Virus genome (UHGV): UHGV-1730239
Origin: a virus
Direction: 5' to 3' (one strand)
DNA length: 14,195 nucleotides
The notes under the pieces are model-generated. The model was not told the origin of the DNA, did no database searches, and saw nothing but the letters and a program-made list of their open reading frames with translations. Positions 14-14,195 of the stretch are shown here, in pieces. The translations under genes and the position numbers were made by a program. Position 1 is the stretch's first letter. Each line of letters starts with the position of its first letter.

Positions 14-51
14 ATAAACAGGTTGAAGGTGATGCGCTTAGAATTTTTCAT
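14..51 (-). CDS. Possible N-terminal fragment of a leftward gene running off the contig end (MKNSKRITFNLFI...)
   Basis: Minus-strand ATG at 51..49 preceded by AGGAG (revcomp of 61-65) with a 9-nt spacer; the frame stays open into the adapter. Only 13 codons visible. Confidence 0.2.
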
Positions 52-101
52 TTATAAATACTCCTGAATGCTCTGTGTTAGTTTTAATGTTTCATGCTAA
101 A

Positions 102-138
102 AGCCTCCTTGCGCCAACAGGGAGGCTTTTTTATTTTT
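102..138. terminator. Rho-independent terminator-like hairpin, usable in both directions
   Basis: Stem AGCCTCC (102-108) pairs with GGAGGCT (121-127), extendable to ~10 bp; followed on + by TTTTTTATTTTT and on - by TTTT. Sits ~40 nt downstream of the minus-strand gene 171-350. Confidence 0.6.
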
Positions 139-170
139 AAAGCCATCATATAATTCTCAGTGAAAGTGGA

Positions 171-350
171 TTAACAAACTTGAACGTTAATCTTTATCTG
201 AATTTCGTATTTCTTCATTAGCTTATAGAATCCGCTTCTATCAATTCCTTCCTTCTTAAAGAAATTCTCGCCGCCTCGTTCAGTATCGCCATAAAAGCGT
301 TTAGCAATATCAACAATCATTTCACGAGTAAACTTAACAGGTCTAGCCAT
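171..350 (-). CDS. Small DNA-binding protein with resolvase-type (HTH_7-like) helix-turn-helix, 59 aa
   Basis: ATG at 350 with GAGGA 8 nt upstream; the listed 64-aa ORF begins at an upstream TTG. Protein MARPVKFTREMIVDIAKRFYGD...SGFYKLMKKYEI matches the GRPxxFT...IA...S..FYK..KK pattern of invertase/resolvase C-terminal HTH domains. Paralog of the gene at 3448-3675. Confidence 0.6.
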   Translation of the reverse strand: MARPVKFTREMIVDIAKRFYGDTERGGENFFKKEGIDRSGFYKLMKKYEIQIKINVQVC

Positions 351-449
351 AAGTAGATTCCTCAAATGTGGATTAATAAGGACAATAAAAAGAGCTTTTC
401 GCCCTCGATACTTCTATTTATAAAATGATTTTCAGAAAACCCTGTAAAA

Positions 450-573
450 CCACTGTATATCCGATCAGTGGGAGCACGAATTGCTAAAGAGAAGATTAAT
501 AATTAATCAATTCGTACATTATTCAATCGAAAAAGCACTGTATGTTTAACCAGTGCTGTATGTGTTAACAGTG
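450..573. promoter_or_regulatory. Three copies of an 18-bp operator-like element CTGTAT-N7-CAGTG; the third also fits a LexA-box pattern
   Basis: 453-470 CTGTATATCCGATCAGTG; 538-555 CTGTATGTTTAACCAGTG; 556-573 CTGTATGTGTTAACAGTG, with the last two directly tandem. Copies 1 and 2 are flanked to form CCACTG..CAGTGG and GCACTG..CAGTGC inverted repeats. 556-571 reads CTGT-N8-ACAG. Confidence 0.5.
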
Positions 574-692
574 AATCAGGGGATTTTCAGAAGTGAACAA
601 TCATTTCATGCATGTATTTATACACGAAAAAATCTTGCTTATCATCAATATGGGGATTGTTTCGAAAATTTCAACCCCTATCAACGAGAAAA

Positions 693-737
693 AGTATAAA
701 ATAATCCTTGACAGTTGTCAATACACTTGACCTAAGC
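693..737. promoter_or_regulatory. Divergent promoter/operator: palindrome TTGACA-GT-TGTCAA with a leftward sigma70-like promoter and a rightward TTGACA-N13-TTGACCTAAG motif
   Basis: Palindrome at 708-721. Leftward: -35 TTGACA (721..716), 17-bp spacer, -10 TATACT (698..693), pointing at the operator triplet and gene 171-350. Rightward: bipartite motif 708-737, no convincing -10. Confidence 0.5.
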
Positions 738-918
738 GAGAAATGACTATCAAAATTTTTGTGTGAAAATGGCGGATAACGATTATCAACCTTTATAACC
801 TATTATAGCACGGCGACCTTTTGATCATTCCTTTTAAATCATGCGATTACCGCGATTTTTGGTGATTTTATGATTAAATAATATACAAGAATTTTCTATC
901 AAAATTTTTGATGAAAAC

Positions 919-1038
919 CCTACACTACAAACCTACACTTTAAAGGGATTGGCCTACACTACACTAGCCAGTAAACCTACACTATAACACCCTCAAACCT
1001 ACACTATGAAACCTACACACCTACACTAACCCTACACT
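919..1038 (+). repeat. Iteron-like array of eight direct CCTACACT copies (consensus aAACCTACACT) with irregular 8-23 bp spacing
   Basis: Copies at 919, 932, 953, 976, 998, 1012 (variant CCTACACA), 1020 and 1031, all in the same orientation, immediately after an AT-rich tract (841-915). No ORF covers the array. Confidence 0.8.
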
Positions 1039-1223
1039 TCAATCTCATAAGTGTATGATCTTGAAAGACATTTAACCCCACAGACCATAGAATATAAAAT
1101 TCGAACTAACGTTCTCCTTTTTGCTCGTTTTCTCTCACTACGTTCAAGAAAGATCTCGCAAAAAGAATACGGCGTAGCCGTGCGCGAAGCGCCCATCAAC
1201 ACCTTCTAAGACCTGCAAGCAGG

Positions 1224-1382
1224 ATTCGAAAGGGATTGGATAGTTCGCTTCGCTCACGTTCACGCCTACGGCGTTCACTCGCTTTTGAAAGGATTTTCTT
1301 AGAAAGGGATTTAATACTAGTTACTAACTGATTCTAGTAAACGAACGAAGTGAGTAACAATCACTTTCTAGAAAGGTATTGG
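1224..1382. repeat. Second repeat family: short palindrome followed by AAAGG(G)ATT(GG), inside a GC-rich ORF-free stretch
   Basis: TTCGAAAGGGATTGG (1224-1239), TTTTGAAAGGATTTT (1284-1298), TTCTTAGAAAGGGATTT (1296-1312), TTTCTAGAAAGGTATTGG (1365-1382); an extra copy TTTAAAGGGATTGG at 939-952 lies inside the CCTACACT array. Confidence 0.6.
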
Positions 1383-1383
1383 T

Positions 1384-1412
1384 ATCCCTTCGGGATTGCA
1401 ACCTTCGGTTGC
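1384..1412 (+). other. Two tandem stable hairpins with CTTCGG centres
   Basis: ATCCC-TTC-GGGAT (1384-1396) and GCAACC-TTC-GGTTGC (1398-1412), back to back with no U-tract; candidate RNA processing/stability elements or protein-binding palindromes. Confidence 0.5.
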
Positions 1413-1611
1413 TAAATTGCTTCCTGATTATTATTTCTCCAAAAGAAAGATTCTTATATTCTAAAGATACTTCTTCGTTTTGATGATGATTTAATCAAAA
1501 CTATGAAGGAGGGCTATGCCCGACTGAATACAATCACCTTTCATAATAACAAGAATTTTCTCTTTATAAATAATATTAGATTGATTCACTTTCTTTTAGA
1601 GGATTTCCACT

Positions 1612-2079
1612 ATGAACCATAAAATGACTACCACTACTCCTTTCATCCTGTTAGGTTTTGATGCTGATAGCTTCCACAATGACAAGTTAATGAAGATGTT
1701 CCGTGAACGTGGTTATAACATCCTTTTCAATTCCGATGAATCCCATTTCTCTAGTGCATGGTATGCGTTTTGCCGTAATAAGAAGCCGACCATTGTTGTT
1801 AACGTCTTCACCGATGAAGATCGCTTAAAGTACCAGAATCTACCAGCAATTATTGTTCGTGATGATCTGCCGTTTGAAGTCCGTTCCGGTGACATTGATC
1901 TGGGTAGCTTCGTTACTGTCTATGAACTGGATGAAGCAATGTTTAACTACGGCAAAGAAACCGCTCAGGAAGCCCCAGAACAAGATGAAGAAGATGAGGA
2001 AGACGAAGACTACGCTCCAATCTGTTTTTCTTCTCAGAATGGCTTCTACGGTTACGATGAAGGCTTAGATATGCTGTAA
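1612..2079 (+). CDS. Hypothetical strongly acidic early protein, 155 aa
   Basis: ATG at 1612 with AGAGGA 8 nt upstream; coherent codon usage; C-terminal tract EAPEQDEEDEEDEDY. By eye roughly 35 D/E against 13 K/R. Confidence 0.7.
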   Translation: MNHKMTTTTPFILLGFDADSFHNDKLMKMFRERGYNILFNSDESHFSSAWYAFCRNKKPTIVVNVFTDEDRLKYQNLPAIIVRDDLPFEVRSGDIDLGSFVTVYELDEAMFNYGKETAQEAPEQDEEDEEDEDYAPICFSSQNGFYGYDEGLDML

Positions 2080-2180
2080 GTTAGGTCAACCCTTTGGCGT
2101 CTTGTCAAGGTGTATTGACAAAAATTTCTGACTTTTTATGATTATCGCACTTGACAACTTTGATTATATTTGACCTAGAT
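2080..2180. promoter_or_regulatory. Promoter/operator region with inverted repeat TTGTCAA-N6-TTGACAA, a sigma70-like promoter, and two further TTGACA-N13-TTGACCTAR motifs
   Basis: Inverted repeat 2102-2121; -35 TTGACA (2115-2120), 16-bp spacer, -10 TATGAT (2137-2142). Bipartite motif on + at 2151-2180 (TTGACA-N13-TTGACCTAGA) and on - at 2108..2080 (TTGACA-N13-TTGACCTAAC). Confidence 0.55.
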
Positions 2181-2199
2181 TTGTAAAGAGGATGTAAGC

Positions 2200-2379
2200 A
2201 TGAAAACCTTTACCCGTGAACGTGAACCAGGAGTGATCGAAACCCGCCGTCGTCGTTATGTTAAGGGCTTTGGTTGGGCTACCGAAACCGTGGATGTGGA
2301 ATATAAAGACGAATCCAAAGCACCGAAACCATCACCTTTGCAAATGGCTTTACGCGGATTGTGTGCTAACAACAAATAA
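2200..2379 (+). CDS. Small basic hypothetical protein, 59 aa (MKTFTREREPGVIETRRRRYVKGFGW...); not in the supplied ORF track
   Basis: ATG at 2200 with AGAGGA (2187-2192) 7 nt upstream, ~55 nt downstream of the promoter; host-like codon usage (cgt, ccg, gaa, acc); stop TAA 2377-2379. Confidence 0.55.
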   Translation: MKTFTREREPGVIETRRRRYVKGFGWATETVDVEYKDESKAPKPSPLQMALRGLCANNK

Positions 2380-2402
2380 GAAATAGCTCTTATAAATAAA
2401 AT

Positions 2403-2426
2403 TGTTCCGGTGGTGATGCCGGAACA
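2403..2426 (+). other. Intergenic hairpin without U-tract between the 59-aa gene and the Rha-family gene
   Basis: TGTTCCGG (2403-2410) pairs with CCGGAACA (2419-2426) around an 8-nt loop; followed by GGGAGG, not a T-run. Possible processing site or attenuator. Confidence 0.4.
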
Positions 2427-2470
2427 GGGAGGATTAAATCGCAAAACCGTTAATTAAGGGGAATTTTACT

Positions 2471-3307
2471 ATGAATACTGTTACTGCTATGACTACTAAA
2501 ACTGCTTCCGTGTCTCTGGTTGTTGATAACACCAAACCGCTGACCATGTCTACCCGTCAGATTGCTGAATTAACCGGAAAGAGTCATGATCACGTTTTGC
2601 GTGATTTTCGTAATATGATTGCTTCTATCCAAAAAGGTAGCAAACTGGTCGGAGGAGATCTCACCAATTTTGGCGAGATTGGTTTTTATACAGAAACCAC
2701 GTACAAAGATAAACAAAACCGCAATCAGCGCATGTATGAACTGGATGAAGATCTCTGTAATACACTGGTTATGGGATACGATGCACCGCTTCGCTTCAAA
2801 ATTGCTAAAGAATGGCGTTTGATGAAAGAAGGTAAAGCTAATGTTCCGGTTAATCCATATGAACACTTTGAAGAAACCGATTGGATCGAACTGGCATTAG
2901 AGAAAACCCGTGAAAATAAACGTCTGGTTGAATTACATGTTCGTAAAGCTATCGACACTCACAGCTTAACCCGTCTTCTGGGCGAAAAACGAGGCTCAAC
3001 GAAGGTACAAATGATTCTGAAAGGATTGTGTGCGGCTGGTGTTCTTGAGCGTCGTCTGGATGCTTCTGGTAAGCCTAACGGCTATGATCTGCTTCCTCCT
3101 GGTTATATGTTCGCTCGTATGTCTGCACACGGTCAGATCGAGTTCACTGCTGATGCTATCCCGCATCTCGTAAAACTCGGATTGCTTGAAGAAGAAAAGG
3201 CCGCAACTTTGAAATTGCCACAGCCGAACAACTCACGAGCAATCGTCAATAATACTGCTTTGCTGATTCGTCAGAATGCCGGATCGCTGGAACACTTCGG
3301 ACTGTAA
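2471..3307 (+). CDS. Rha-family phage regulatory protein (antirepressor-like), 278 aa
   Basis: ATG at 2471 with AAGGGGA upstream. N-terminal segment LTMSTRQIAELTGKSHDHVLRDFRNMI matches the Rha/ORF6N motif (IAELTGK.H..VLRD.R); ends with tandem stops TAA-TAA. Confidence 0.8.
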   Translation: MNTVTAMTTKTASVSLVVDNTKPLTMSTRQIAELTGKSHDHVLRDFRNMIASIQKGSKLVGGDLTNFGEIGFYTETTYKDKQNRNQRMYELDEDLCNTLVMGYDAPLRFKIAKEWRLMKEGKANVPVNPYEHFEETDWIELALEKTRENKRLVELHVRKAIDTHSLTRLLGEKRGSTKVQMILKGLCAAGVLERRLDASGKPNGYDLLPPGYMFARMSAHGQIEFTADAIPHLVKLGLLEEEKAATLKLPQPNNSRAIVNNTALLIRQNAGSLEHFGL

Positions 3308-3315
3308 TAATTTTT

Positions 3316-3341
3316 GCCCCTGAAATTCAGGGGCTTTTTTG
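3316..3341 (+). terminator. Rho-independent terminator after the Rha-family gene
   Basis: GCCCCTG (3316-3322), 5-nt loop, CAGGGGC (3328-3334), then TTTTTT (3335-3340). Confidence 0.8.
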
Positions 3342-3412
3342 TATCTACATCACGCGAATTTTCGCGCCATCTTCCACCAACCCGCCGATGGCGTTTTGGT
3401 CACCTTACAGAT

Positions 3413-3439
3413 ATAAAAAAAGCCACTCCGAAGAGTGGC
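3413..3439 (-). terminator. Rho-independent terminator for the leftward two-gene operon
   Basis: On the minus strand: GCCACTC, UUCG loop, GAGUGGC, then a 7-8 U run (A-run 3414-3421 on +); 8 nt beyond the stop of gene 3448-3675. Confidence 0.8.
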
Positions 3440-3447
3440 AAAGAGAA

Positions 3448-3675
3448 TCAAAAACCTGTTGCTTCTACGATCTGACCGTCGCCAATCTGAACATAGAATT
3501 TAATATCTAACTTCTTGATATTTTTATAGAATTGAGCTACCGATATAGCGTGCTCACTAAGAATCTGTTCTTTCGCTTCCTTCCCGCGATCCGCTGTATA
3601 GTAAGCGTAGGCAATATCAGCCATTTGTTCTTGAGTGAAACGTGCCGGACGACCGCGAGTAGCTTTAATAGTCAT
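3448..3675 (-). CDS. Small DNA-binding protein with resolvase-type (HTH_7-like) helix-turn-helix, 75 aa
   Basis: ATG at 3675 with GGAGGA 7 nt upstream; the listed ORF starts further upstream without an SD. Protein MTIKATRGRPARFTQEQMADIAYAYY...ISVAQFYKNIKKLDI carries the GRPxxFT.EQ...IA...S..FYK motif. Paralog of gene 171-350. Confidence 0.65.
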   Translation of the reverse strand: MTIKATRGRPARFTQEQMADIAYAYYTADRGKEAKEQILSEHAISVAQFYKNIKKLDIKFYVQIGDGQIVEATGF

Positions 3676-3710
3676 AGTTACTTCCTCCAAATTAAAGTGA
3701 ATGTTCACCT

Positions 3711-4313
3711 TTATTTAGAGGACTTACATTTTATCGGAAAAAGTTCTCCATCGTCAACTGACATAAAAAACTCTGCCTTAATCCCGTACTTCTTCAACCG
3801 TGAATAATATGTACCCCGACTTATATCAACCTTGCGAAGCACTTCAAAGAAGGATTTAGGATCGTTGTAATAGTGGCTGTACTTCACGTTAGCGAGTTCT
3901 ACAAACAATTCCCTTGTATCACCATAGCCTTTCTTGAAAGCCACGTTACGATAGCGTGTAATAGCGTGATTTAGTCTCTTCTGTTTCAACACTTCCCTGA
4001 TCGGTGTCCACTGCAACCGATAGATCGGACCGTCATCCACTCGATAATAACGCTTGATATCAAAATCAAACCATTCACGGACTCTCTGGAACTCTGTATG
4101 TGATGTTCTATGCTTCTTAAAGAAGTTGTGAACGTCTGTATAACCATTATCACGGTAAAATTCTATTAAAATCTCTTTCGCTTCCTCACGGCTAAACCCA
4201 GATGTTGTGTAATCGGTCTTTAAGTGCTTATGTTTTACTGGCAAACGATATTCATGATCGGTACAAGACAAGGCTAATTCTAATTCATCTCTTTCTTGCT
4301 GATTAATTAGCAT
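3711..4313 (-). CDS. Hypothetical protein, 200 aa, with C-terminal HTH-like segment ([13 protein letters not shown]); first gene of the leftward operon
   Basis: ATG at 4313 with AAGGGGGG upstream; its stop sits 35 nt before the next start. The C-terminal motif resembles the recognition helices of the two small HTH proteins. Function not recognised. Confidence 0.6.
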
Positions 4314-4400
4314 ACACCCCCCTTAAATCTTAATACCCGTATTTATCAGAAAATCAACAATTTAATAAATACCTTCATATTTCGTAATGAGGGTAATTAC

Positions 4401-6308
4401 ATGAAACTGATTTCGAACAAGGCCAAATTAAAAAAGATTCTTAAAAATGCCGCAAAATATATCACTCCACCGCCTAAACTCCTTCCGTCTGAATGGTGCG
4501 AAGCGAATATGGTGCTGGTAGATGGTCCTCAAGCTGGGGATAAAGTTAAATTGTTGTCATTCCAAAAAGGCATGATTGATGCACCTTTCCTTGAGAACAA
4601 GAAAAAGTATGTCCTGATGACCAGTGCACAGATCGGAAAGACTACCATCCTGAACGGTATCCTGTTTAACCAGATGGCTAACGATCCATGCAATATGATT
4701 ATCGGACAATCAACCGCTAAAGAAATGTCTCAATATCTCGCTGGTAAGATCCGACCGTCTATCGAAGCATGTGATGCATTAAAAGACGTTGTTACAGACA
4801 AGAATGATCGCAATGCGGTTAACAACAATAACCAACTCCAGCTAAAAACGAATCACTTCCTGTACATGGTATCGCTAACCAGTCCATCGACCCTACGTGG
4901 TAAGACCGCAAAGGTTGGATTGCTTGACGAAATCGATGCTGCTACAGCCTCAGAAGAAGGTGATCCGGTGGCACTGGCTGCTAACCGTTTAACTACCTTT
5001 GGCGATGAAGGCCGATTAGTCGTATCCAGTACCCCGACCAGTAAGCTGGGAAGCATTAACCAGCAATGGTTATCAAGCGATATGCGTATGTTTTTTGTTC
5101 CGTGTCCTCATTGCGGTAGACACCAGGTGATCGAGTGGGAAAACGTTCAATTTGAATGGCGTAACATCGATGGTAAGAACTTGCCCGATCCTGATACCGC
5201 TCGTTATATTTGCCCCCACTGTAAGCAATCATGGACAGAAGGGGAACGAATCAGGGCAGTAGCGCAAGGCGAGTGGAGAGCAACCCGTGAAAGTGAAGTA
5301 GCCGGATTCTGGATCAGCCGTTTGTATTCACCTTTCAGCACGATCCGCGCTTGTGTGGTTGATTTTAGCCATGCGTGGCAATCCTTTGATTTACAATCAT
5401 TTTATAACACCGTGTTAGGCAAGGTATACGACGATCAGGACACGGCAGTAGAAGCAAATGAACTGGAACAACTCAAAACAGATGTTTCTATCGAGAATAT
5501 CCCTGATGACGTGATTTTCTTGTGCTCAGGAATTGACCAGCAATTGGACCGCGCAGAATCTACCATCTTAGGTGTAGCGAAAGATAAGGTTTACATTCTG
5601 GATCACCGCAGCTTTTACGATCATAACTGTGAACGATATGAATCACCTGTTTGGGATCGCCTGGTTAACTTCAAGAAAACCAAATTCTATAACGTTAATG
5701 GTGAACGTGTACCAATGCTCGCCAGCTTCCTTGATACATCGAACGGTCGATTCACTCAAGCCGGATACCGTATTTGCGGCAAGTGGAAGAACCTACACGC
5801 GATCAAAGGTAGTTCATCTGGTAATGCTCCAGTGATTCCGGTTAAACCTACCCGCACAGGTGGTCATGAATTGCTTATGCTGGGTGTTAACGTTGGTAAA
5901 TCCGCTGTTCGTGAAATGCTGGTTAGAAACCTGAAAGATAATCCTCATATTGGCTTAGAAATATCAGAAACCGTTCCTGATGATTATCTCGATCAGCTTT
6001 TGAGTGAATCCATCAAGCGTACTACTACTGGCGTGCGTTGGGTGAAAAATCCAGGTAGTACCCGAAACGAGGCTCTCGACTGTCTGGTTTATAGCTATGC
6101 TGCTTCTCGCTACGTCCTTTCAAAAATGTCATGGGATAAACTCATTGCAATGAAAGATAGTTTGAACCGTGAACCAGAAGAATCCGTAGAATCTCCTAAA
6201 TCGCAATCTAACGAGCAAATCGAAGAAACTAAGCCAATCACACGACCGCAACGTCAAAACATCGCCAGACGCCCAAATAGAGGCCGTAGCTGGATAACAT
6301 CGTTCTAA
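4401..6308 (+). CDS. terL: Terminase large subunit, lambda gpA family, 635 aa
   Basis: ATG at 4401 with GAGGG upstream. Walker A-like TSAQIGKTT and Walker B-like GLLDEID; the segments GIDQQLDR and RNEALDC(L)VY match what I recall of lambda gpA (GIDSQLDR, RNEALDCFVY); CxxC pairs (CPHCG, CPHCK). Confidence 0.9.
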
Positions 6309-8442: not shown

Positions 8443-10446
8443 ATGCTTAAATTTCGCCGCGATCTTAACGGTTACGGTGGAGTTATTAATGAAGGGCATA
8501 ACGATCAATACGAATTTGAAATTGCTTTCTCAAGTACACAGCCTTATCAGCGCCAATTTTGGGATGAGCAAAATCAAGAAATGGTGGTATTAGATGAAAT
8601 TCTGGTACATACACCGGAAGCGGTTGATCTGTCTCGTCTGAATAATAACGCTCCGTTGCTGTTCAATCACAATTTCGATAATCACATTGGTGTAGTTTGT
8701 AACGCTCGAATCGATGCGGATAACGTAGGTCGTGCTCTGGTTAAGTTCTCCAAGCATGGGACTTTGGCTAATGATATTCGTAATAAAGTCATTGAAGGTA
8801 CGATGGAAAAAATTTCGGTCGGCTATGACATTAAAGAGTATCACATCGACTACGCTAAATCGCAACTCATTGTTTCTAAATGGATTCCTCACGAGATTTC
8901 ATGGGTGTCGGTGCCCGCAGACGATACGGTCGGTTTAAATCGCTCTCTAAATACTATCACAGTTAATTTGGAGGCTAAACGCGATATGACTAAAGAACAA
9001 ATCGAAGAAATCAAAGAAGAACAAGAACCCGCTCAGGTTGAAGAAACTCCGGTAGAAGAAAATAAAGAATCGGAAGTAGAAGAAACTCAAGAGCGCCAAG
9101 TTGAAGAGAATGAAGAAAATGAAAATCTCGAAGACGGAAAAGACGCTGAACATCCTGAAAGTGTTGATGATGATAGTTCAACTGTTCGGGAAGCAGAAGA
9201 AGTAAAAGAAGAACGTGAAGCCGCGCCGGTTGAAGAAGAAAAAATCGAAGAAGTGGCTGAACGTTCCGAAGAAGACGAATTAGAAATTCGCGAGATCGCT
9301 CGCGAGCTAAATATTAACGACGAAGAATTAGAACGCGCATTGGCAGTTAAAGACATGACGCCGGAAGCATTCCGCACTAAGGCACTAAATAATCTCGTCA
9401 ATTCTCAACGTAATAACGAACAACAAATTAAGGACTCTAAAATGGAAAAAACTTTTGACCTGAATGCTGTATTTCGCTCTCTGATCGATGGTGACACTCT
9501 GGGTGCTCATGAAGCTGAATATTCCGCGATGGCTGCTACTGCAACTGTACAGCGCGGTCGTGCTGCTCGTAGTGGCTCTGTATTCGTTCCGGCTGCTGCT
9601 CTGCGTGCTGCTGCTGCTGGTAACACTAAAGCTACTCTGGAAGCTGTAACTGATGAAAAACTGCTGACTGAATCCTATGTAGAAATGCTGATGCCTCAGT
9701 CCGTTCTGGGTCGTCTGGGTGTGACTGTCCTGTCTGGCCTGAATAGCCCGATCGCAGTACCAAAAATGACATCTTCTTGTGTTGACGGTTTCGGTTTCGT
9801 TTCGGAGAACGGCGAGGCACCAGAAAATAAAGCAGGTTTCGCAAACGTGAAAATGGCTCCTAAGACTTTCGCAGGGGGCAACCCAATTTCGCGCCTCAGC
9901 CTCAAAACCGTTCCGGGTATCGCAACCCTGATCACTGATCACATGAACAAAGCTGTTCGCATCAAACTGGAACAACTGGTGCTGTCTGATAAAGAAAACG
10001 CTAACGGTCCGAAAGGTCTGATTAAACATCTGGTTGATGCAAGCCGTGTTGAAAAGAAAGCTGCTTTCACCTACAAAGACTTCCTGAAAGAAATCGCAGC
10101 ACTGACTGATGCTGGCGTTCCGGCACAGTCCATCAAATTTGCCATGAGCGGTGCAACTGCTGCTGAACTGGAATCTACCCTGAAAGATAACGGCGTTTCC
10201 GGTTATATCATCGAAAACGGCAAACTGGCTGGTTACGACGTAGTTACTTCTGGTGTTATTCCGGCTGGCCACATCGTTCTGGGTGACTTCTCCGCGATTA
10301 CTATCGGTGAGTGGGGCGGTCTTGAGGTAGATCTGGACGATTCAACCTACCGAGCACAGGGCGCTATCGTTCCGCGTATCTGGGTAGACCTGGACTTCAC
10401 CGTAGTTCAGCCGGAAGCTCTGAAAGTTCTTCATATCTCTGAATGA
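8443..10446 (+). CDS. Single-ORF fusion of prohead protease (HK97 gp4-like), acidic scaffold-like linker and HK97-fold major capsid protein, 667 aa
   Basis: ATG at 8443 with AAAGGTGA upstream. N-terminal ~170 aa carry prohead-protease motifs (LLFNHN..HIGVV, ISVGYD, ISWVSVPADD). Residues ~180-330 are an E/D/K-rich predicted coiled coil. The C-terminal ~335 aa look like an HK97-type capsid protein ending in ...VQPEALKVLHISE. Single TGA stop. Confidence 0.85.
   Translation: MLKFRRDLNGYGGVINEGHNDQYEFEIAFSSTQPYQRQFWDEQNQEMVVLDEILVHTPEAVDLSRLNNNAPLLFNHNFDNHIGVVCNARIDADNVGRALVKFSKHGTLANDIRNKVIEGTMEKISVGYDIKEYHIDYAKSQLIVSKWIPHEISWVSVPADDTVGLNRSLNTITVNLEAKRDMTKEQIEEIKEEQEPAQVEETPVEENKESEVEETQERQVEENEENENLEDGKDAEHPESVDDDSSTVREAEEVKEEREAAPVEEEKIEEVAERSEEDELEIREIARELNINDEELERALAVKDMTPEAFRTKALNNLVNSQRNNEQQIKDSKMEKTFDLNAVFRSLIDGDTLGAHEAEYSAMAATATVQRGRAARSGSVFVPAAALRAAAAGNTKATLEAVTDEKLLTESYVEMLMPQSVLGRLGVTVLSGLNSPIAVPKMTSSCVDGFGFVSENGEAPENKAGFANVKMAPKTFAGGNPISRLSLKTVPGIATLITDHMNKAVRIKLEQLVLSDKENANGPKGLIKHLVDASRVEKKAAFTYKDFLKEIAALTDAGVPAQSIKFAMSGATAAELESTLKDNGVSGYIIENGKLAGYDVVTSGVIPAGHIVLGDFSAITIGEWGGLEVDLDDSTYRAQGAIVPRIWVDLDFTVVQPEALKVLHISE
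9442..10446 (+). CDS. Candidate nested product: major capsid protein alone, from an internal in-frame start (334 aa)
   Basis: In-frame ATG at 9442 with AAGGA 7 nt upstream; from here codon usage switches by eye to the highly-expressed style (ctg, cgt, ggt, gct, tcc). A second in-frame ATG at 8986 has GGAGG 11 nt upstream. Confidence 0.4.
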   Translation: MEKTFDLNAVFRSLIDGDTLGAHEAEYSAMAATATVQRGRAARSGSVFVPAAALRAAAAGNTKATLEAVTDEKLLTESYVEMLMPQSVLGRLGVTVLSGLNSPIAVPKMTSSCVDGFGFVSENGEAPENKAGFANVKMAPKTFAGGNPISRLSLKTVPGIATLITDHMNKAVRIKLEQLVLSDKENANGPKGLIKHLVDASRVEKKAAFTYKDFLKEIAALTDAGVPAQSIKFAMSGATAAELESTLKDNGVSGYIIENGKLAGYDVVTSGVIPAGHIVLGDFSAITIGEWGGLEVDLDDSTYRAQGAIVPRIWVDLDFTVVQPEALKVLHISE

Positions 10447-12254: not shown

Positions 12255-14195
12255 ATGCAAAGTCTACAGCACAAACGATCCGGTGTTGCTGGTAAAAAAC
12301 CGACGCCGGAACAATTACAGGTCGGTGAATTAGCAATAAACTTAGTCGACCATGTAATTTACACTAAAGATAAAAGCAATGCGGTAGTGCAAATCAGTGT
12401 TTCCCCAGAAAGTCATAATACTTTAAACAAAAAAGTAGACACCAACAAGACGAACACCGATAAAGTTATTGTCGCAAATAAAAAAGAAGCTGCTAATAAT
12501 CTGGCTACCGCTAAAACTGAATTAACTAACACTATCAACACCAAAGACGCCGCAATCAATAAACGTGCTGATGGTATCAATACCGCTGTTTTGAATCTAC
12601 AGAAGATGGTAGCGGCAAATAAAACTGATGCAGATAACAAGATTACTTCTTTAACATCGACTGTCACCGCAAACAACACAGCGATCAATAAAAAAGTTGA
12701 TGCAAACAAGATGCAAGCCGACAAAGAGATCACCCGCTTAGATGGTCGTATCGATGATGCTGTTTTCCGTGGTGAATTGCCAACTGATGCAAATTTAGAT
12801 ACATATGGTCCACTTCCTGAATTTGTCGGTGTATGGGGCAAATCAACGTCTACTAACGCAACTCCGGCTTATAGTTTCCCGGAAGATGGCGCGGTTGGTA
12901 TTCTTGAAGTTTTCTCCGCTGGTAACTTTGCGGCAACTCAGCGTTATACGACGCGCTACGGTAATATTTTTGTTCGTAACCTTTCCGCTAAATGGAATGG
13001 CTCTAATGGTCCGTGGACGCCGTGGCGTAATATTCAGATGGGTACTCGTCCGCTTTCGACGTCAATTAATCTTAATGATTTTGGCGGTGTTGAGCATTTT
13101 GGCTTATGGCGAAACGGGTCTACATCAATTGCGTCGTTAGATCGAAACTTCCCAGAAGCAGGGGCAGACGGTCGAGGATTGTTAGAAGTTTTTGAAGGTG
13201 GTAGTTATTCCCGTATGCAGCGTTACACAACCATTAACGGTCGTGTGTATATTCGTACTCTCGCCGCTTCGTGGGATGCATCCGCGCCGAGATGGGAAGC
13301 GTGGAAAAAGGTTGGTCTTTTTACCCCGTCTGAAATTGGCACATACAATAAAGCGGAAATTGATAAGAAAATTTCTGATTTGGACAATGCGCTAGTATCT
13401 AAACCGATCCAGCCGTTACCGGACGTATGGATACCGTTTAATGATTCTCTGGATATGATCACAGGATTTGCGCCGGGATATAAAAAAATTACTGTTGGTG
13501 CGGATGTTGTCACTATGCCTAGTGACAAGATTGTTAGCTTTACTCGTGCATCAACCGCTACATATATTAATAAATCTGGTAGGCTTAGTGTCGCTGCAAT
13601 TGATGAACCACGATTTGAAAAAAATGGTTTATTGATTGAAGGCCAACGAACTAACTATTTTGTTAAATCTAACACCCCTGCCGAATGGACTAGCACAAGC
13701 AATATTGATAAAAGCAATAATGGCGTTGATGAATTTGGTTTTTCATTTGCAAAAATGAAAACTAAGGAAAATATGACGGGTCAATCATCCGCTCTTAGTT
13801 TGCATACATGCAGCGCATCCCGTGGTGTTGATGTTAGTGGTGATAATAAGTTTTGCACAGTTTCTTGTCGTGTTAAGGCTCCTGATGGCCTCCGTTGCCG
13901 TTTACGCTTTGAAAAATACGATGGATCGGTTTACACCTTTTTGGGTGATGCTTATTTGACTTTCGGTAGCACATTGACAATAGAAAAAACTGGTGGTGCT
14001 GCTAATCGTATTACGGCTAACGCTACTAAAGATCCGGTTACTGGTTGGATTTTTTACGAAGCGACGATAGAAGCGGTTGAAGGGGAAACCTTGATTGGTG
14101 CAATGATTCAGTATGCACCGAAAAAAGGCGGTGTAACCGAAGCAGGGGATTATATCTATCTTGCCACACCACAATTCGAAAATGGTAGTTGTGCG
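12255..14195 (+). CDS. Tail fibre protein, 3'-partial (at least 647 aa, continues past the window end)
   Basis: ATG at 12255 with GAGGTGA upstream; the frame is open to the last base and is absent from the ORF track only because no stop falls in the window. Contains an N/K/T/A-rich coiled-coil-like shaft (~12400-12760) and two ~48-aa repeats with motif LEVF...QRYTT..G..(F/Y)(V/I)R.L.A.W....W..W resembling the knob domain of pyocin/phage tail fibres. Confidence 0.75.
   Translation, partial: MQSLQHKRSGVAGKKPTPEQLQVGELAINLVDHVIYTKDKSNAVVQISVSPESHNTLNKKVDTNKTNTDKVIVANKKEAANNLATAKTELTNTINTKDAAINKRADGINTAVLNLQKMVAANKTDADNKITSLTSTVTANNTAINKKVDANKMQADKEITRLDGRIDDAVFRGELPTDANLDTYGPLPEFVGVWGKSTSTNATPAYSFPEDGAVGILEVFSAGNFAATQRYTTRYGNIFVRNLSAKWNGSNGPWTPWRNIQMGTRPLSTSINLNDFGGVEHFGLWRNGSTSIASLDRNFPEAGADGRGLLEVFEGGSYSRMQRYTTINGRVYIRTLAASWDASAPRWEAWKKVGLFTPSEIGTYNKAEIDKKISDLDNALVSKPIQPLPDVWIPFNDSLDMITGFAPGYKKITVGADVVTMPSDKIVSFTRASTATYINKSGRLSVAAIDEPRFEKNGLLIEGQRTNYFVKSNTPAEWTSTSNIDKSNNGVDEFGFSFAKMKTKENMTGQSSALSLHTCSASRGVDVSGDNKFCTVSCRVKAPDGLRCRLRFEKYDGSVYTFLGDAYLTFGSTLTIEKTGGAANRITANATKDPVTGWIFYEATIEAVEGETLIGAMIQYAPKKGGVTEAGDYIYLATPQFENGSCA

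Follow-up and report, generated by a model that had tools for sequence, protein, structure and literature searches.

A compact family of stand-alone helix-turn-helix paralogues with exchangeable alleles in an enterobacterial prophage lineage

A 14,195-nt stretch of viral DNA (UHGV virus genome UHGV-1730239, referred to below as the window) carries, between positions 171 and 4,313, three minus-strand genes for proteins of 59, 75 and 200 amino acids, which we call P1, P2 and P3. These proteins form a new, narrowly distributed and unannotated family of a very common protein kind, built from a compact helix-turn-helix (HTH) module, and P1 and the first module of P3 are exchangeable cassettes between otherwise near-identical phages. 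We favour the explanation that P1-P3 are sequence-specific transcription regulators of the phage programme, a reading to which we give about an even chance of being right. The element that carries them would be an uncharacterised temperate siphophage of Enterobacterales.

Window bases 14-4400 were 100% identical to the chromosome of Escherichia coli O6:H16 strain 2014EL-1346-6 (NZ_CP024232.1). All three open reading frames (ORFs), first proposed in a sequence-only reading of the window, proved to be real genes, since each coincides with a RefSeq coding sequence in that chromosome, and each has a good ribosome-binding site. P1 starts at an ATG; its homologues all begin with MARPVKFT, and none supports a longer start at a TTG. 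P1 is the first gene of a leftward operon, P1-h331-h80. The paralogy suggested earlier also held and goes beyond chance. P1 and P2 are 33% identical (E = 2e-9), P2 matches residues 40-97 of P3 (E = 3e-4), and P1 matches P3 twice, at residues 40-87 (E = 2e-4) and 133-186 (E = 2e-5). Because P1 matches two separate stretches of P3, P3 is a tandem duplication, and there are four modules in the three proteins. A hidden Markov model (HMM) of the module detected no further copies in a six-frame translation of the window, in the 36-kb prophage or in related loci. As the sequence-only reading had stated, all three proteins stand alone, with no catalytic domain attached.

Structure prediction agreed with the HTH expected for these proteins. 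The AlphaFold2 model of P2, built from family alignments (predicted local distance difference test score, pLDDT, 81.8), placed helices at residues 15-27, 32-41 and 46-55, followed by a beta-hairpin at residues 61-71. The P3 model (pLDDT 73) contained two units, each of three helices and a hairpin, with the N-terminal 29 residues and a 10-residue linker at low confidence. The module of ~60-70 residues would thus have three parts: an N-terminal basic arm, which P1 and P2 possess, an HTH of three helices and a C-terminal beta-hairpin. P3 is predicted to be a covalent tandem pair of this module. The conserved hairpin is specific to the family. Conserved residues (R9, P10, F13, E16, I44, F49, K51 and K55) are located in the arm and in helix 3. 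A GRP pattern had been described as common to all three proteins; it is literal in P2 (RGRPARF), takes the near form ARPVKF in P1, and fails for P3, both of whose modules lack the arm.

The G-I-S turn, the F-Y-K..KK recognition helix and the basic R-P arm of P1 and P2 fit HTHs of the resolvase/transposase class, and on these grounds we read the module as a generic, homeodomain-like member of that class. The narrower resolvase/invertase assignment made earlier was weakly supported. The turn and recognition-helix pattern resembles HTH_7, HTH_23 and HTH_Tnp_1 equally, and searches of P1-P3 against Pfam, PHROGs, NCBIfam and PADLOC gave zero matches, with none in Pfam even at E<=1, including to HTH_7 (PF02796). 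Alignment of the family with the DNA-binding domain of Hin by hhalign gave a probability of 3%, with a Hin query sequence entered by hand, and Hin lacks the C-terminal beta-hairpin of the P1-P3 module. P1-P3 also differ from Hin/Gin invertases and Tn3/gamma-delta resolvases in not being fused to a serine-recombinase catalytic domain. The N-terminal HTHs of IS3/IS630/Tc1-type transposases and the tandem HTHs of CENP-B/Myb type (HTH_Tnp_1, HTH_23, HTH_28, CENP-B_N) showed no significant direct sequence match; in contrast to these systems, P1-P3 have no transposase domain, carry a beta-hairpin wing and are set in a phage early region. A sequence-profile search of the PDB returned no meaningful match, a Foldseek search of the BFVD viral models with the P2 model returned none at E<=0.001, and fold matches were weak overall.

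A profile search of 1.84 billion representative proteins gave just 24 matches at E<=1e-3. Outside the family these were solely proteins of 4-8 tandem HTH repeats, which Pfam scores as HTH_7, HTH_23, HTH_28 or HTH_Tnp_1 (E from 1e-20 to 1e-55). As these tandem-repeat proteins are the sole bridge, the link of P1-P3 to the resolvase HTH family is only transitive. True relatives occur only in prophages of Enterobacterales (E. coli, Shigella, Salmonella, Proteus and Providencia), in keeping with the suggestion that the proteins are specific to this element, and the homologues of P3, in 42 clusters, are all annotated as 'hypothetical'.

The prophage is ~36 kb long and interrupts hicB, the window covering its left third. 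It is remote from sequenced phages: its closest TerL among them is 44% identical, and a tblastn search of 50,697 phage genomes with P3 gave zero matches. A literature search on this prophage type found nothing relevant. One E. coli genome holds two prophages of the lineage. We compared 42 loci, namely the window's prophage, 7 divergent assembly loci and 34 IMG/VR contigs; 8 divergent loci form the subset compared in detail. Gene order was constant and was kept in E. coli, Salmonella and Proteus loci. Written in the direction in which P1-P3 are transcribed, it runs from TerL (opposite strand) through P3 and P2 to Rha, o59 and o155 (opposite strand), then across ~1.2-1.8 kb of non-coding DNA to P1, h331 and h80, and ends with TerS (opposite strand). 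Family-library scans and annotation revealed no recognisable CI, Cro, Q or other regulator in the prophage, Rha excepted, which makes P1-P3 the main candidates for its control circuit.

Comparison of two loci, L004 and L005, showed that P1 and P3 vary independently of the phage backbone. These loci are near-identical in TerL (95%), P2 (95%) and TerS (89%) but sharply different in P3 (45%), P1 (31-32%), h331 (26-27%) and h80 (29-30%). The exchange in P3 is intragenic, covering roughly codons 17-135, that is, the variable linker and module 1, between flanks that are 80-100% identical; it leaves the P3-TerL control region and P2 conserved. Exchange of P1, as seen between loci W and L034, is limited to the ORF and ~80-90 nt upstream. 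P1 alleles diverge at the start of helix 3 (RSGFYK, KSTFHK, PSDFRK or RRTFSR), a variation that, judged from the sequences, fits what is expected of specificity residues. In module 2 of P3, 4 of the 8 divergent loci retain the recognition-helix motif ISRGTYYxRxKKY; L006, L007 and L008 carry substituted forms of it, and L005 and L009 have ISR(P/A)WYKKK. P2 is 55-95% identical across loci and missing from two of the eight, and is a conserved yet dispensable, accessory member of the family. The exchange of P1 and P3 module 1 follows the pattern expected for specificity determinants of the immunity type.

The same variability can be read in another way. P1-P3 could be modular factors for protein interaction or host takeover (for example in anti-defence, superinfection exclusion or polymerase modification) that reuse a three-helix scaffold without sequence-specific DNA binding, in which case hypervariability would reflect an arms race and not operator specificity. 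This would suit the hypervariable P1 and P3 module 1 with no co-varying cis motif, an intragenic P3 exchange that spares the neighbouring regulatory DNA, the weak fold matches, and an early region rich in small genes without known function, such as that for the acidic o155. However, the arm and helix 3 carry the conserved basic and aromatic G-I-S...F-Y-K..KK pattern typical of DNA-reading HTHs, the profile cross-matches were solely to DNA-binding HTH repeat proteins, and PADLOC and anti-defence families gave no matches. We regard this explanation as unlikely, though deserving of some weight.

The sequence-only reading had noted several distinct repeat families in the region and had proposed that their number matches that of the proteins. 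The first point stands, as there are more than three: CCTACAC(T) iterons, ATAAATA boxes, TTGACAA palindromes at two sigma-70 promoters, and GAAAGGGATT-type repeats. The motif families number at least four, as against four modules spread over three proteins, and the proposed one-to-one match of proteins and repeats does not hold. The iterons are strongly enriched: CCTACAC(T) is matched 9 times in the window, where 0.93 matches are expected. In related prophages an iteron array occupies the corresponding position but differs in sequence (ATCCCTAG, TTGCCCCTGA, TCACGGACAAAA or GATGTACA), and covariation with the neighbouring proteins could be scored in the 35 loci that yielded both an iteron type and an h331 cluster. 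Five iteron types were present (TTGCCCCT in 16 loci, CCTACACT in 14, and the remaining three in 2, 2 and 1), and they partitioned exactly with the h331 clusters in 35/35 loci. P1 allele 1, in contrast, was found with five h331/iteron types and P1 alleles 3 and 4 with two each; the P3 allele of the window (allele 1) co-occurred with P1 alleles 1-4 and h331 clusters 1, 2, 5 and 6; and P2 is almost unchanged between L004 and L005 despite their differing iterons. We therefore assign the iterons to h331 and not to P1-P3. A role of P1-P3 as iteron-binding initiator or regulator is contradicted by their alleles, which do not co-vary with the iterons in these loci.

The h331 protein (~330 amino acids) is encoded directly downstream of P1, just left of the window (19043-20038 of locus L001). 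It has a variable N-terminus, a coiled coil and an acidic tail, and matched no entry in any family library. It is presumably a replication-initiator-like protein, and the iteron array together with h331 is probably an origin and its initiator.

A network with one paralogue for each repeat family, three proteins for three repeats, is the reading to which we give least credence, and we think it highly improbable. A repeat-rich region with several HTH modules invites it, but the co-occurrence analysis spoke for h331 as the partner of the iterons, P3 allele 1 crosses four h331 clusters and P1 allele 1 five iteron types, and the ATAAATA boxes and TTGACAA palindromes are kept with any P1 or P3 allele, and also where P2 is absent.

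The (T)ATAAATA(C/A) box is found at a constant spacing 5' of the start codons of TerL, P3, Rha, o155, P1 and TerS. Across the 8 divergent loci it was present in 40 of 47 gene-locus combinations, and none was found 5' of the internal genes P2, o59, h331 and h80. By count the motif is not enriched (7 matches in the window against 4.3 expected); what speaks for it is that its position is kept while the flanks have diverged. Between P3 and TerL the two boxes lie ~26 nt from the P3 start and ~30 nt from the TerL start in 8/8 loci. The box is kept regardless of the P1 or P3 allele and is a lineage-wide promoter-like element, which we take to resemble the late-promoter element of T4. A GAAAAT-like tract is frequent 7-10 nt upstream of it, and inspection by eye showed no conserved -35 partner.

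Because homologues of CI, Cro and Q are lacking and a box precedes nearly every operon, early and late, at a fixed distance, the paralogues may be considered as the phage's own promoter-recognition system reading the ATAAATA boxes. P3, perhaps with P2 or P1, would then work at the boxes either as a monomeric activator like MarA/SoxS or as a factor that appropriates sigma, and the hypervariable module 1 of P3 would give a second, allele-specific contact. We consider this improbable; if true, it would mean that a temperate enterobacterial phage runs a new type of self-contained transcription programme.

A palindrome, TTGTCAA-N6-TTGACAA, lies over a strong sigma-70 promoter 5' of o59. It was kept in all loci, including those that lack P2, and is a candidate operator for a conserved factor. 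Binding of the TTGACAA palindromes by P2 was rejected, as the o59-upstream copy is kept in both loci without P2. The two strong sigma-70 promoters of the region (705-730 and 2084-2160) have the 12-mer GTGTATTGACAA in common.

The reading of P1-P3 as sequence-specific transcription regulators draws on their fold class, their place at the heads of early operons, the lack of another recognisable regulator apart from Rha, and their cassette behaviour. P1 would act as an early-operon regulator, the first product of a leftward operon that also encodes the iteron-linked, replication-type h331. P3 and P2 make up a two-gene operon that diverges from the packaging and structural operon, and P3, possibly together with P2, may act at or from the divergent P3/TerL control region. 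P1 and P3 module 1 would be the allele-specific specificity determinants. The functional analogy is with CI and Cro of lambda-type phages, which are also small HTH proteins heading early operons, with alleles swapped as cassettes between near-identical temperate phages; P1 is of Cro size and comes first in an operon leading to a replication-type gene. P1 and P3 differ from CI and Cro in their HTH class, in that no co-varying operators were found, in the independence of their alleles and in the intragenic nature of the P3 swap.

Several points weigh against regulators of this kind. DNA binding by P1-P3 is a prediction from sequence and structure models. A classical immunity regulator is expected to travel with its operators, and we found no DNA motif, within or near the cassettes, that co-varies with P1 or P3 alleles; group sizes were small, and the k-mer search for motifs private to allele groups was noisy. 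The control region next to P3 stays the same when module 1 is swapped, so this module might have a protein or a remote site as its target. Moreover, P1 and P3 alleles assort independently of each other; a CI/Cro-like pair with common operators was rejected on this ground.

The position of P3 directly beside the large terminase gene raises a further explanation, that P3 and P2 are packaging-specificity proteins, helping the gpA-type terminase to recognise cos or pac sites in the manner of the N-terminal DNA-binding domain of a small terminase (TerS). The gene directly upstream of TerL is not one for a small terminase, and the family resembles the N-terminal domain of Sf6 gp1-type TerS (Sf6_terminase, PF20901) in having a GRPxx(F/Y)xxE arm followed by an HTH and a gene beside a terminase gene. 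The hhalign alignment with Sf6 gp1 spanned 52 columns but reached a probability of only 23%, with the query sequence entered by hand. Unlike Sf6 gp1-type TerS, P1-P3 have no oligomerisation or terminase-binding domain, and all loci conserve a separate Nu1-like TerS candidate (phrog_57, E = 1.6e-10; 17518-18072 of locus L001, outside the window and 6.3 kb upstream of TerL). In addition, P3 alleles vary independently of TerL and TerS, P2 is missing from two of the eight loci, and P3 and P2 are transcribed away from the packaging operon. A role in packaging is accordingly very unlikely. P2 or P3 as the small terminase itself was rejected, on the lack of a terminase match in PHROGs and of a C-terminal oligomerisation region, on the presence of the Nu1-like TerS elsewhere, and on the missing co-variation of P3 with either terminase gene.

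The opposite end of the prophage encodes the large serine recombinase that accounts for its integration into hicB. This protein of 559 amino acids (27982-29661 of locus L002) bears Resolvase, Recombinase and Zn_ribbon_recom domains, and the module HMM found no copy of the family module in it. Small HTH proteins are among the recombination directionality factors (RDFs) of serine integrases, and the prophage annotation names neither an excisionase nor an RDF, so that one or more of P1-P3 could be an RDF or an architectural protein for this integrase. Nevertheless, the genes lie ~30 kb from that of the integrase on the prophage map and the data show no connection with att sites, and we attach very little weight to the idea.

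With respect to annotation, P1-P3 make up a compact HTH family that Pfam, PHROGs, NCBIfam and PADLOC all lack, and their genes belong to the control region of a widespread, unstudied prophage lineage whose early region is almost wholly unannotated. P1 and P3 module 1 as specificity cassettes, and the assignment of the iterons to h331, supply a short parts list for the study of lysogeny and induction. HTH paralogues are common in phage early regions, and the advance is a modest one: a useful annotation rather than a new principle, and a new protein family rather than a new kind of system. Table 1 collects the features of the region.

Table 1. Genes, modules and DNA elements of the P1-P3 region (window coordinates)
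Feature	Position	Strand	Description
P1	171-350	minus	59 amino acids from ATG; single module with ARP arm, three-helix HTH and short C-terminal strand; RefSeq WP_000113737.1
P2	3448-3675	minus	75 amino acids; single module with RGRP arm; second gene of P3-P2 operon
P3	3711-4313	minus	200 amino acids; conserved N-terminal helix, variable linker, two tandem modules
P3 module 1	4002-4199 (residues 39-104)	minus	Hypervariable; 36-69% identity between loci
P3 module 2	3714-3929 (residues 129-200)	minus	More conserved module
Terminator-like hairpin	3422-3439	minus	Closes the P3-P2 operon
ATAAATA boxes (7)	54-60(+), 415-421(-), 615-621(-), 1566-1572(+), 2392-2398(+), 4340-4346(-), 4365-4371(+)		
Divergent P3/TerL control region	4314-4400 (87 bp)		Two inverted ATAAATA(C) boxes, 4340-4346(-) and 4365-4371(+); between them AATCAACAATTTA, similar to the integration host factor consensus
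P1 upstream element	390-421	minus	ATAAATA box at 415-421, then conserved hairpin and T-run at 406-390
Iteron array	919-1037	plus	8 x CCTACAC(T), single orientation; type CCTACACT

Two non-coding stretches of the region have further structure. Between a near-consensus sigma-70 promoter (721->693, TTGACA-17-TATACT) and P1 lie ~300 nt (385-690, minus strand) that fold with a z-score of -4.6 relative to shuffled sequences. This stretch contains two terminator-like hairpins and the invariant CTCTTTAGCAATTCGTGCTCC, is 90-99% conserved across differing P1 and h331 alleles, and may be a structured leader or a small RNA. The non-coding DNA at 1205-1425 holds GAAAGGGATT-type repeats at 1225, 1299 and 1367, with another at 944, and two hairpins with UUCG loops at ~1381-1412; its folding z-scores were -2.2 (plus) and -2.5 (minus), and it had no Rfam match. 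The o155 protein (1612-2079), 35-89% identical between loci and without a family match, has a C-terminal tail (EEDEEDEDY...) that is strongly acidic and aromatic; it may mimic DNA or act against host defences.

Beyond P3 follow the gpA-type TerL (4401-6308), a head-tail joining protein, a lambda-type portal and a protease-capsid fusion. The Nu1-like TerS candidate and the gpA-type TerL are split by the entire 6.3-kb early region, an odd arrangement for a lambda-type packaging module. The fusion of protease and major capsid protein (8443-10446; Peptidase_S78 and Phage_capsid in relatives) has a long glutamate-rich linker, especially around ~9000-9500, with an AT skew of 0.36. Relatives in Salmonella and in other E. 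coli adjoin a truncated PHP-domain gene, not hicB. An IS1 copy (31171-31868 of locus L002) lies between the tail and lysis genes of the prophage, which may be defective. Window bases 1-13 (GCTCTTCCGATCT) are Illumina adapter, and the chromosomal match starts at base 14. The sole DNA-level likeness of the window to sequenced phages is at 13419-13662, ~80% identical to tail-fibre genes of T5-like phages (T5_ev219, VSe12 and NG_A1), a sequence match that suggests exchange of a receptor-binding module.

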